This document shows positions 21,773-28,447 of a DNA stretch of 49,914 nt, one piece after another. The translations under genes and the position numbers were made by a program. This stretch comes from a virus. Its lineage: Duplodnaviria > Heunggongvirae > Uroviricota > Caudoviricetes. Each line of letters starts with the position of its first letter. Position 1 is the first letter of the stretch. The notes under the pieces were generated by a model, which had not been told where the DNA came from, did not search any database, and worked only from the letters and a program-made list of their open reading frames with translations. The DNA is taken from IMG/VR virus record IMGVR_UViG_2802429222_000003; one strand, 5' to 3'.

Positions 21773-25453
<3,681 letters not shown>

Positions 25454-25479
<26 letters not shown>

Positions 25480-25999
25480 TCAGCAACCCCGGTATCAGTT
25501 CATCCAGCGCGGCTGCTTTGTTCATGGCTTTGATGATATCCCGTTTCAGGAAATCAACATGTCGGTTTTCCAGTTCCGGAAAACGCCGCTGCACCGACAG
25601 GGGGATCCCGTCGAGAATACTGGCAATTTCACCTGCGATCCGCGACAGCACGAAAGTACAGAATGCGGTTTCCACCACTTCAGCGGAGTCTCTGGCATTT
25701 TTCAGCTCCTGTGCGTCGGCCTGCGCACGCGTAAGTCGATGGCGTTCGTACTCAATAGTCCCTGGCTGCAGATCTGTCTCGCTGGCCTGCCGCAGTTCTT
25801 CAACCTCCCGGCGCAGCTTTTCGTTCTCAATTTCAGCATCCCTTTCGGCATACCATTTTATGACGGCGGCAGAGTCATAAAGCACCTCATTACCCTTCCC
25901 GCCACCTCGCAGAACGGGCATTCCCTGCTCCTGCCAGTTCTGAATGGTACGGATGCTCGCACCGAAAATGTCAGCCAGCTGCTTTTTGTTGACTTCCAT
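25454..25999 (-). CDS. Nu1: terminase small subunit Nu1 (181 aa)
   Basis: MEVNKKQLADIFGASIRTIQNWQEQGMPV... essentially identical to recalled lambda Nu1. Confidence 0.95.
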
Positions 26000-26260
26000 T
26001 GTTCATTCCACGGACAAAAACAGAGAAAGGAAACGACAGAGGCCCAAAAGTTCGTTTTCAGCACCTGTCGTTTCCTTTCTTTTCAGGGGGTATTTTAAAT
26101 AAAAACATTAAGTTACGACGAAGAAGAACGGAAACGCCTTAAACCGGAAAATTTTCATAAATAGCGAAAACCCGCGAGGTCGCCGCCCCGTAACCTGTCG
26201 GATCGCCGGAAAGGACCCGCAAAATGATAATAATTATCATCTACATGTCACAACGTGCAT
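26000..26260 (-). other. cos packaging site: cosN 12-nt cohesive-end sequence at 26177..26188 with cosB to the left and cosQ side to the right
   Basis: plus strand AGGTCGCCGCCC is the reverse complement of lambda GGGCGGCGACCT; flanks match recalled lambda left- and right-end sequences. Confidence 0.9.
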
Positions 26261-26387
26261 CTACGCCATCAAACCACGTCAAATAATCAATTATGACGCA
26301 GGTATCGTATTAATTGATCTGCATCAACTTAACGTAAAAACAACTTCAGACAATACAAATCAGCGACACTGAATACAGGGCAACCTC

Positions 26388-26621
26388 ATGTCAACGAAGA
26401 ACAGAACCCGCAGAACAACAACCCGCAACATCCGCTTTCCTAACCAAATGATTGAACAAATTAACATCGCTCTTGTTCAAAAAGGGTCCGGGAATTTCTC
26501 AGCCTGGGTCATTGAAGCCTGCCGCCGGAGACTGTGCTCAGAAAAAAGAGTTTCGCCTGAAGCAAACAAAGAAAAGAGTGACATTACTGAATTGCTCAGA
26601 AAACAGGTCAGACCAGATTGA
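26388..26621 (+). CDS. small basic protein with ribbon-helix-helix-like core (77 aa)
   Basis: RNIRFPNQMIEQINIALVQKGSGNFSAWVIEACRRRL resembles the RHH (CopG/Arc) pattern. Confidence 0.5.
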   Translation: MSTKNRTRRTTTRNIRFPNQMIEQINIALVQKGSGNFSAWVIEACRRRLCSEKRVSPEANKEKSDITELLRKQVRPD

Positions 26622-26663
26622 AGCAATTTAGATAATCGTGCAGACTACGCCCCATCATATCAC

Positions 26664-27089
26664 ATGGAAGGTACTACAATGGCTCAGGTTGCCATTTTTA
26701 AACAAATATTCGATAAAGTGCGAAATAATTTAAACTATCACTGGTTTTATTCTGAACTAAAACGTCACAATGTCTCACATTACATTTACTATTTAGCCAC
26801 AGAGAATATTCATCTTGTTCTTGAAAACGATAATACGGTTTTAATAAAAGGACAGGGTAAGGTTGTAAATGTAAGATTTTCAAAAAATAAATGCCTTATA
26901 GAAGCCACCTTAAAAGGATTCAAATCAGGAGAGTTATCATTTTACGAATACAGGAAAAATCTTGCTACAGCAGGGGTTTTCAGATGGATTACAAATATCC
27001 ACGAAAACAAAAGGTATTACTATACCTTTGATAATTCATTACTATTTACTGAGAACATTCAGAACACTACACAAATATTTCCGCACTAA
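26664..27089 (+). CDS. DUF1398-type protein, YbcV-like (141 aa)
   Basis: resembles recalled DLP12 YbcV ([12 protein letters not shown]...[10 protein letters not shown]...[13 protein letters not shown]); true start may be the internal Met at 26679. Confidence 0.6.
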
Positions 27090-27677
27090 ATCATAACGTC
27101 CGGTTTCTTCCGCGCCAGAACCGGACTCGCTGGCATGATGAAATATGTGTACCCGGTAACCCCGGTGTGCATCGTTTTTGATTATTCCCGCACACTCACG
27201 CAGAAGGAATTCCCCGTCGGGCTACGGTCTCTGTTAATACGGGAATACGGCGACGATACAGCGCATGATGTGTCAGGCTTGAATACCTTTATCCTTTAAA
27301 AGGGATATCAGTTAAGTTATCCCGTGTAGGGTATAAGCCATTATCAAAGCCACTCTGTAGGGAATGGCTTTTGTGATGGCATCACTTACTCTTTACGCTG
27401 CTATCCCACTCATCCCGGAATTTTGATGGGTTATTGAAACCTTCTGCTGACATAACAACTCCTTCAATGTTTGGCTGAAATTAGGATGTCTTTCCATCAG
27501 TCCGCCACCACAAAGAATCTTTTTTGCCATAAGGCAGGAGGTTCATCTTTCAGTGGCTGCCGGTGTTATTTCTCCACTTACTGGCTTGGGTTGTTTCGTG
27601 GTACTGCCGTTAACTGGTGGCCCAGAATAAATTCCGGTTTCATTATCAAGCCCACCCGTAAATGGGCTTTGTAATGG

Positions 27678-27953
27678 CTACTTCACTTTTGCTTTTGCTT
27701 TTGCTTTTGCTTCCGCTCGCTTACGCCGGCGCTCTTCTTTCCTCTCGGCTTTTGCCATGTCCATGAATGCCTGCATGATCGAGTTCCGCATCATGTAGCT
27801 AACAAAGTGATGATTGACACAGCCGTTGAGGCGCAGCTGCTCGCCAAACTCATCCACCGAGGCCAATGCTTCCATCATGCCCTTCTCGCCTTTCATGAAC
27901 TCTGAGAAGTCGCGCCCCGCTCTGGAGGCGCATTCAATAACCCGATCACTCAT
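27678..27953 (-). CDS. hypothetical protein with basic (AK)n C-terminal tail (91 aa)
   Basis: ATGA overlap with the upstream KilA-N gene; tail encoded by a perfect hexamer repeat. Confidence 0.5.
   Translation of the reverse strand: MSDRVIECASRAGRDFSEFMKGEKGMMEALASVDEFGEQLRLNGCVNHHFVSYMMRNSIMQAFMDMAKAERKEERRRKRAEAKAKAKAKVK
27686..27709. repeat. perfect tandem hexanucleotide repeat CTTTTG x4 (CAAAAG on the coding strand)
   Basis: read directly at 27686..27709. Confidence 0.9.
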
Positions 27954-28447
27954 CCCGGAAGCCCGGGGATCGTAATCTGCAGCTGGTTAGCCAGGGAGTT
28001 AATCTCAGCGACCAACACTGGCTTCGTATAGCGCCATGCTGCCAGCCCTTGTCCGCAGAAGCTCGCCATGTCTTTCTTCTGGTCAAACTCATGACATTTC
28101 ATGTTGAGCTGCGCACTTAAGCTGTTGCGATGCTGAAGTTCTCCGGTGAAGTAGTCATCGAGGACTTTATAGGCCGCGTACTTGAACCCGGGGTTTAACC
28201 AAGCCGCATAATCGTAAGCAACAAACTTCCCGCCATATGTTCCACCGTGTACACCGCGCTCAGTAAAAACCACAGATTCGTGGTTTTTCTCCAGCTCGGC
28301 TAAGAACTCTTTGGTCTGCTTGTTTCGCAGGTAGTGGTAAGGCGATTCAGATTCACTTTTACCACTGGCTTTCCACATATCAGTGAGGCAGATCATGCCA
28401 TCTTCACCGATACGAATTGGTTGATTGAAGAGGGTTAATGATTTCAT
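27950..28447 (-). CDS. KilA-N domain protein (165 aa)
   Basis: N-terminal pattern IRIGEDGMICLTDMWKASG....YHYLRNKQTKEFLAEL typical of KilA-N/antirepressor N-domains. Confidence 0.6.
   Translation of the reverse strand: MKSLTLFNQPIRIGEDGMICLTDMWKASGKSESESPYHYLRNKQTKEFLAELEKNHESVVFTERGVHGGTYGGKFVAYDYAAWLNPGFKYAAYKVLDDYFTGELQHRNSLSAQLNMKCHEFDQKKDMASFCGQGLAAWRYTKPVLVAEINSLANQLQITIPGLPG

Follow-up and report, generated by a model that had tools for sequence, protein, structure and literature searches.

Two small genes of a lambda-type prophage are encoded on the strand opposite to the late operon, and an earlier note, made from the DNA sequence alone, had described them as a basic ribbon-helix-helix (RHH)-like protein followed by a larger YbcV-like protein, reminiscent of an antitoxin-toxin or regulator-effector pair. 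This arrangement raises the question of whether the two genes belong together. Here, we analyzed the window, which denotes the whole stretch of 49,914 nucleotides (IMG/VR record IMGVR_UViG_2802429222_000003). The answer that we consider fairly probable is that the locus carries two separate, individually mobile accessory genes (“morons”) at the lambda-type lysis/packaging junction and no two-component system. The genes themselves are already known and very common: they are the long-catalogued ynfO/ylcI and ydfO/ybcV, widespread in lambda and most E. coli prophages, and variants of the locus are found in about nine of ten complete E. coli genomes as well as in phage lambda itself. Setting aside the toxin-antitoxin interpretation keeps a mis-annotation from spreading.

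Locus architecture and gene identity

The window represents a lambda-type prophage in reverse orientation. Nu1 and terminase A are located on the minus strand to the left of the two genes, and a 91-aa gene, a KilA-N/ORF11CD3 gene, Rz, lysozyme and holin follow on the same strand to their right, which places the gene pair between the lysis genes and cos, opposing the late operon. The cohesive-end sequence AGGTCGCCGCCC at 26177-26188 is the reverse complement of lambda GGGCGGCGACCT, and the DNA flanking cosN aligns to the lambda-type phage HK629, to Qin and to DLP12. cosN gives the right end of the virion DNA, and the ynfO-like start codon follows 200 nt downstream. Together with the ORF list, which contains two plus-strand ORFs at 26388-26621 (77 aa) and 26664-27089 (141 aa), the cosN match confirms the position beside cos and the orientation against the late operon that had been described earlier. 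None of the RNA families in Rfam was detected in the window. The main features of this part of the locus are:

23554-25479, minus strand: terminase A, left of the two genes
25454-25999, minus strand: Nu1, left of the two genes
26177-26188: cosN cohesive-end sequence, the only exact occurrence in the window (chance expectation 0.01)
26388-26621, plus strand: ynfO/ylcI-type gene, 77 aa, DUF3950 (Pfam, NCBIfam, RefSeq name ynfO, dN/dS)
26666-26671, plus strand: Shine-Dalgarno sequence GGAAGG of the ATG at 26679, at a distance of 7 nt (read from the sequence)
26679-27089, plus strand: ydfO/ybcV-type gene, DUF1398, 136 aa, or 141 aa if the start is at 26664 (Pfam, 3.3e-43; PDB 2HH8)

The 77-aa protein matches Pfam DUF3950 (PF13132) with 72.8 bits (cut-off 25) and NCBIfam YlcI_YnfO_N (NF041551) with 35.2 bits, above the curated cut-off of 30, and shares 96 % identity with proteins called YlcI/YnfO. 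As had been noted, it is small and basic (pI 10.9, 17 K+R vs 8 D+E). The YbcV-like character ascribed to the second protein was likewise confirmed, since it matches DUF1398 (PF07166) with 147 bits (cut-off 22, E 3.3e-43) over model positions 1-119 of 119 and the NMR structure of YdfO (2HH8) over residues 1-135 with an E-value of 2.9e-67. Both ORFs are under purifying selection, with dN/dS values of 0.03-0.12 for ynfO codons 1-50 (dS 0.7-2.0) and of 0.18-0.39 for DUF1398 (pairs with dS of at least 0.3), and thus represent genes rather than chance ORFs. While both genes are real, the 42-nt gap given in the earlier note is probably too short. No Shine-Dalgarno sequence precedes the ATG at 26664, and in E. 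coli DNA of 99.5 % identity the RefSeq start of the DUF1398 gene is the second ATG, at window position 26679. With GGAAGG in front of this start codon, the intergenic gap is probably 57 nt and the protein 136 aa long.

The DUF1398 protein is soluble by its hydropathy profile (maximum over 19 residues, 0.39) and has no signal peptide or membrane segment; labels such as “envelope protein” or “head protein” are therefore unsupported and are regarded here as propagated annotation. Its AlphaFold model, built from a shallow alignment, reached a pLDDT of 53, too poor for a fold comparison, and a profile search of PDB sequences with DUF1398 found only 2HH8. In a full-text literature search, no paper was found that gives either DUF3950 or DUF1398 a function. 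One article states that over-expression of YdfO protects against oxidative stress (PMC4077768), but this is a mix-up of names: the source cited there (Wang 2010) deals with YfdO of prophage CPS-53 and never with ydfO, and the claim was consequently not used as evidence.

Relatives in lambda, DLP12, Qin and E. coli genomes

In a megablast search, DNA related to the locus was found in 4931 of 5426 complete E. coli genomes, at a median of two places per genome. A scan of IMG/VR for diversity returned only copies of 99-100 % identity. As a side observation, a scan of species representatives yielded mostly lambda contamination of non-enterobacterial assemblies.

The closest described counterpart is found in the Qin prophage of K-12 (ynfO, b4533; ydfO, b1549). 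Its order is that of the window, with nohA (the Nu1 homologue), a spacer of about 390 bp, the 234-nt ynfO, a gap of 57 nt and the 411-nt ydfO, likewise opposed to the lysis genes. Qin YnfO differs from the window protein at only 2 of 77 residues, whereas the DUF1398 proteins are only 75 % identical, and dS between the two loci amounts to 0.015 for ynfO but 0.64 for DUF1398. The mosaic joint between window and Qin is located at the DUF1398 ribosome-binding site. Further downstream the loci also differ, with gnsB, ynfN and cspI in Qin vs the 91-aa gene and the KilA-N gene in the window.

At the right end of lambda and in DLP12, both families occur in the same orientation beside cos, yet in the order ylcI-ybcW-ybcV-bor. 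Here, the DNA is near-identical to the window from cos to ylcI codon 50, and the final 17 nt of the compact ynfO (GGTCAGACCAGATTGAA) as well as the DUF1398 leader are kept. In place of the 3′ part of ynfO there is a segment of approximately 600 bp that encodes ybcW on the opposite strand, so that YlcI has 64 aa and a different tail and the two genes lie about 650 bp apart. This split arrangement was found in the lambda-type phage HK629 and in DLP12. Lambda contains both reading frames, neither of which is annotated in J02459; elsewhere, lambda DUF1398 is annotated as an N-terminally extended ORF of 177 aa and called “putative envelope protein” or “head protein.”

The small protein and its place beside the packaging genes

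DUF3950 is a small family, comprising 108 clusters (50 % identity) among 1.84 billion representative proteins. Its conserved core reads K-N-I-R-F-P-x-x-h-I-E-x-I-...-N-F-S-A-W-V-I-E-A-C; in the 77-aa protein, this core is preceded by a basic N-terminal arm and followed by a variable C-terminal tail (about residues 51-77). According to the model, residues 14-50 probably form an Arc/Mnt-like strand-helix-helix core. The AlphaFold monomer shows coil at 14-18 and helices at 19-32 and 37-54 (core pLDDT 75-83), and nearly all of its 25 Foldseek neighbours in the PDB are RHH proteins, such as NikR, ParD, Arc, VapB, KacA and YiiF (best E 3.3). A comparison with BFVD gave a similar picture, as almost all neighbours were RHH proteins (best E 0.39). 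In hhalign, residues 12-33 were aligned to Arc 9-30 with a probability of 1 %, and neither Pfam (E up to 10) nor the PDB profile search linked DUF3950 to RHH families. The RHH-like core proposed earlier hence agrees with the predicted structure and its neighbours, but none of the scores is statistically significant, and we regard the fold as plausible though unproven.

With Arc and Mnt of phage P22, the 77-aa protein has in common its small size, an N-terminal arm, a strand motif and the succession of helix, turn and helix. The strand motif is NIRFP, compared with NLRWP in Arc and NFRMP in Mnt, and a G-x-S/N turn connects the helices as in these repressors. A difference is that no divergent antirepressor promoter adjoins the 77-aa gene, in addition to the lack of a significant sequence or structure score.

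The position of the gene is conserved. When lambda-type phages are compared with Stx-type phages, the homologous DNA starts precisely with the DUF3950 ATG, which indicates that the ORF itself is the unit kept at this position. Moreover, the gene always diverges from the first packaging gene, both in the system of Nu1/A and lambda cos and in the unrelated one of HNH/TerS/TerL. In Stx-type phages such as YYZ-2008 and JLK-2012, DUF3950 occurs alone, on the opposite strand between the lysis genes and HNH/TerS/TerL.

This constant divergence, together with fusions to a terminase domain, forms the basis of an alternative in which DUF3950 is tied to DNA packaging. By attaching to DNA close to cos or to the promoter region of the first packaging gene, the protein would adjust, prevent or divert terminase expression or packaging, e.g., when helper phages compete with satellites, and DUF1398 would be an unrelated passenger. 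The fusions are the satellite proteins P0332 and P0299, in which DUF3950 is joined to the N-terminal DNA-binding part of the Terminase_2 small subunit; the satellites in question also have an integrase and a primase. YlcI/YnfO proteins are also listed in capsid-forming PICIs (PMC13612085). Still, distant DUF3950 genes are found in non-packaging settings as well (a TonB-receptor/CopC operon and an integrative element), and the site may be just a permissive module boundary, as bor and other morons are located there, too. The only palindromes upstream of the ynfO-like gene are the Fur-type and FNR-type boxes described below, and no shared operator was found. Furthermore, minimal cos fragments are packaged without the ynfO-type gene. 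Altogether, we consider a tie to packaging unlikely. The joint proposal that DUF3950 is a conserved DNA-binding factor of the packaging module, which, in conflicts between prophage, superinfecting phage and satellite, could regulate or disturb the expression of terminase or the recognition of cos, with DUF1398 as a passenger, appears rather improbable.

Separate inheritance of the two genes

A type II toxin-antitoxin or abortive-infection pair, with the RHH protein as antitoxin and autorepressor and DUF1398 as toxin, would match the layout of a small RHH-like gene before a larger gene on the same strand at a distance of 57 nt. RHH antitoxins (ParD, RHH-type MazE, VapB, KacA) are indeed among the Foldseek neighbours of the small protein, and DUF3950 lies upstream of nearly all phage-type DUF1398 genes examined. 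Six lines of sequence-based evidence nevertheless indicate that the two genes are not an obligate pair, and this explanation is very unlikely.

First of all, the genes are found apart in both directions. By tblastn, DUF3950 was detected in 155 phage records and DUF1398 in 43, and more than 110 phage records as well as the satellites feature DUF3950 without DUF1398. Conversely, the K-12 chromosome carries a DUF1398 gene by itself, ycgX, located beside bluR. Sensitive blastn of complete E. coli genomes found DUF1398 DNA in 5376 and the ynfO core in 4184, leaving at least 1192 genomes with a DUF1398 gene (ycgX) and no detectable DUF3950. Distant DUF3950 genes, be it in the integrase/primase satellites, the TonB-receptor/CopC operon or the integrative element, are never accompanied by DUF1398.

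Conserved adjacent inheritance, as expected for a type II toxin-antitoxin system, was thus not found: in addition to the separate distributions, the genes are split by ybcW in lambda and DLP12, and dS is discordant, with near-identical YnfO proteins standing next to DUF1398 partners that differ by 25 %. The same applies to a conserved toxin-binding C-terminal region in the antitoxin. Conservation of the 77-aa protein stops near residue 50; its tail is replaced in lambda and DLP12, where DUF1398 is still 76-77 % identical, and is different again in Stx phages. PADLOC-DB 2.0 gave no match for the 77-aa protein and only a chance-level Csx23 match (E 0.023) for DUF1398. The antitoxin-toxin or obligate regulator-effector relationship suggested for this locus was therefore not borne out, given the occurrence of each gene without the other, the discordant dS and the missing PADLOC match.

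Previous reports also speak, indirectly, against toxicity. An ASKA clone over-expressing ybcV tolerates this and reaches stationary phase (PMC2853380), although its K-12 host has ylcI and ynfO in trans. YdfO was moreover produced for the NMR structure 2HH8, presumably by over-expression in E. coli.

A looser connection could nonetheless exist. Among the phage-type DUF1398 loci with retrievable upstream DNA, all but one (L124) have a same-strand DUF3950 gene upstream, so phage-type DUF1398 may depend on ynfO in a one-way manner.

Boundaries of the DUF1398 cassette

The history of the second gene can be read from loci that lack it. In L010 and JLK-2012, both without DUF1398, the DNA after the DUF3950 stop codon aligns to the window DNA after the DUF1398 stop codon. 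The right junction, ACGTyCGGTTTCTTCC (from 27096 on), is common to loci with and without DUF1398. It opens a non-coding backbone that is conserved at a BLAST identity of 80-94 % over lambda-type, DLP12 and Stx-type loci and shows folding z-scores of -3.76 on the minus and -2.38 on the plus strand:

27096-27380: conserved non-coding backbone (alignment to L010 and JLK-2012; BLAST; folding)
27098-27126: hairpin inside the backbone
27337-27380: hairpin inside the backbone (-27.9 kcal/mol), followed by TTTTG on the plus strand

Judged from its sequence, the hairpin at 27337-27380 may end the plus-strand transcription unit. An ORF of 54 aa within the backbone (27135-27299) was considered as a third gene and is treated as non-coding, because, despite the conserved DNA, its frame does not stay open in DLP12 and JLK-2012, owing to stop codons or frameshifts.

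The DUF1398 gene is hence an inserted AT-rich cassette with a history unlike that of ynfO. It is present or absent between conserved flanks and has a deviant composition (31 % GC vs 48 % for the window), two of the properties by which a moron is recognized. The lambda genes bor and lom, described as morons by Hendrix and colleagues, are likewise encoded on the opposite strand between modules of the late operon; they are expressed from the prophage, as is probable for the cassette, and they also resemble the cassette in their deviant composition and in their presence or absence between relatives. In lambda and DLP12, ybcV is followed by bor. However, Bor is a lipoprotein with a serum-resistance phenotype, while both genes described here encode proteins without signal peptide or membrane segment.

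Expression and host-factor sites

The earlier note had assumed expression independent of late transcription, possibly in the lysogen. This is in agreement with transcription data from K-12 and with the mapped sites of host regulators: the K-12 homologues reside in cryptic prophages without late transcripts and are nonetheless transcribed and regulated. By analogy, both genes of the window are probably expressed outside lytic growth, in the lysogen. For instance, ybcW and ylcI were described as a convergent excludon in at least 50 % of the RNA-seq samples analyzed (PMC12288877), ydfO was upregulated 116-fold upon ionic-liquid shock (PMC4077768), and a pdhR mutant had 10-fold less ybcV mRNA (PMC7660256).

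The Fur, FNR and PdhR sites of K-12 can be mapped onto the window by position and sequence, at the same offsets from the Nu1/nohA start, and these offsets are equal in Qin and the window:

26225-26239: candidate Fur box TGATAATAATTATCA, a perfect 7-1-7 palindrome (one match in the window, 0.02 expected)
26251-26224, minus strand: promoter-like site GTGACA N16 TATCAT, overlapping the Fur box and pointing to cos and Nu1
26314-26327: candidate FNR/CRP-type box TTGATctgcATCAA, a pattern match about 67 bp upstream of the ynfO-like ATG
26606-26614: GGTCAGACC, core of a PdhR-box-like sequence (AAcaGGTcagACCAgaT) in the last ynfO codons

The candidate Fur box lies 233 bp upstream of the Nu1 start, and the Fur site of K-12 nohA, at the same -233 position, was confirmed by gel shift (PMC2189734). 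The FNR/CRP-type box is identical to the target TTAAGTTGATGCAGATCAATTAAT of K-12 nohA/ydfO and nohB, which was defined by ChIP-chip and EMSA, although the cloned nohA promoter responded only marginally to FNR (PMC1802558). Binding of PdhR was located by genomic SELEX at ynfO>ydfO and in the ybcV/ybcW spacer (PMC7660256). In the window, the PdhR-box-like core is found 65-73 nt upstream of the DUF1398 start, and a PdhR-type box is also kept upstream of ybcV in HK629 and DLP12, where ybcW lies in between. Its retention before DUF1398 in the compact as well as the split architecture suggests that the DUF1398 gene has a control region of its own. A sigma-70 consensus promoter on the plus strand was not found upstream of either gene (26189-26680). 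In the compact arrangement, the two genes may also be co-transcribed.

The proximity to cos invites a further explanation, since the right end of lambda DNA is the first to enter the cell. The two genes lie 200-900 nt from the right cohesive end, read inward and are seemingly independent of phage promoters, and could then serve in early counter-defence or take-over while the remaining genome has yet to be expressed. We consider this most improbable: neither protein resembles known anti-defence proteins, the genes are expressed and regulated in cryptic prophages, from which no injection ever takes place, an HNH gene lies between DUF3950 and the terminase genes in Stx-type phages, and the fast injection of lambda would leave only a small head start.

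Two probable accessory genes at the lysis/packaging junction

The gene identities, purifying selection, independent distribution and cassette boundaries, as well as the mosaic descent of the genes and the matching sequences of the host-factor sites, are shown by the present data. On this basis, we return to the reading of two separate morons and suggest the following scenario. The ynfO/ylcI-type gene would be the conserved resident of the site, and its product most likely dimerizes into an Arc/Mnt-like RHH DNA-binding protein. The gene is read away from the first packaging gene, in antisense to the late transcript, and would supply a transcriptional regulator in the lysogen, probably acting on its own promoter or on the cos-proximal region. 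The ydfO/ybcV-type gene, in turn, would be an AT-rich cassette that was placed just downstream of this resident in a subset of phages. It is probably driven by host-recognized signals just upstream and controlled by PdhR, FNR and Fur, i.e., in response to pyruvate, oxygen and iron, and probably provides the lysogen with a conditional benefit in fitness.

Two modest leads emerge for uncharacterized genes of lambda and K-12, neither of which is expected to surprise specialists. On the one hand, in phages with different terminase types it is the small gene that is conserved where the lysis and packaging modules meet, and it appears again in satellites. On the other hand, the DUF1398 gene forms an AT-rich cassette of its own, surrounded by mapped Fur, FNR and PdhR sites.

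A minor observation concerns the spacer between the genes. The two ORFs share a reading frame, with one TGA and 19 sense codons between them, and a protein cluster of 233 aa (P0134) resembles a fusion of the two. A read-through fusion was rejected: the DNA behind this cluster keeps the TGA, which the gene caller took as Trp, and the spacer of many related loci contains a 1-nt indel or an additional stop codon.

Putative regulatory and non-coding elements around cos

Apart from the ynfO/ylcI-type DUF3950 and ydfO/ybcV-type DUF1398 genes, the region between cos and the lysis genes, together with its flanks, carries the following features:

26224-26251, promoter-like site on the - strand, overlapped by a perfect Fur box TGATAATAATTATCA
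27135-27299, 54-aa ORF, which the annotation of phage ev099 lists as a hypothetical protein
27337-27380 and 27641-27676, two copies of the hairpin motif CATTATCAA(A)GCC...GGCTTTGTAATG
27678-28447, late strand, antirepressor-like KilA-N/ORF11CD3 gene that overlaps with a 91-aa gene (PHROG 875)

The promoter-like site (GTGACA N16 TATCAT, 10/12 matches) is directed through cos, toward Nu1 and terminase. Since the overlapping Fur box is the counterpart of the site bound by Fur at K-12 nohA/nohB, packaging genes in a lambda-type phage may be preceded by an iron-regulated promoter.

On the other side of the gene pair, about 230 nt of non-coding DNA (within 27140-27385) is 80-94 % identical among lambda-type, DLP12 and Stx-type loci, and is kept both with and without DUF1398. 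Compared with shuffled controls, this DNA folds better on both strands (z-scores of -3.76 for the - strand and -2.38 for the + strand), and the two hairpin copies flank about 300 nt which are absent from L010. A search of the whole window against Rfam returned zero family matches. The 54-aa ORF is probably not a gene: in DLP12 and the Stx-type phage JLK-2012, stop codons or frameshifts disrupt it even though the underlying DNA is conserved.

Downstream of Rz, where lambda carries bor, the window has the KilA-N/ORF11CD3 gene and the 91-aa gene; this pair is also found in L010, and JLK-2012 has a KilA-N gene.

Relatives in satellites and misleading records

Satellites with integrase, AlpA and primase (L010, 4590-5363; L013, 4714-5103) also have one or two DUF3950 genes each, running opposite to the main operon strand. 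Among these is a fusion with the N-terminal domain of a Terminase_2 small subunit (P0332, 120 aa; P0299, 129 aa). The L010 satellite adjoins a prophage terminase region which itself has a separate DUF3950 gene.

Increased oxidative-stress resistance upon over-expression of YdfO was stated with reference to an earlier study (PMC4077768, citing PMC3105296). The latter, however, dealt with YfdO, YfdK and YfdS of prophage CPS-53, and the statement is a gene-name mix-up.

Lambda right-end DNA was further found in many assemblies labelled as non-enterobacterial (L103-L123, L134 and L135, all matches in genome contigs), e.g., Pedobacter, Kitasatospora, Cohnella and an Arcanobacterium "plasmid"; the contigs in question are often about 3.5 kb long. 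Its likely source is lambda control or spike-in DNA, presumably the roughly 3.6-kb nanopore control strand, and this explains why protein databases contain "YlcI/YnfO" entries under Staphylococcus, Bacillus or spider. The "DUF3950-DUF1398 fusion" cluster (P0134, P0130; L006-L009), with 761 member sequences of 233 aa, is an artefact of gene calling: a TGA is kept between both ORFs in the DNA and was rendered as Trp on short contigs.
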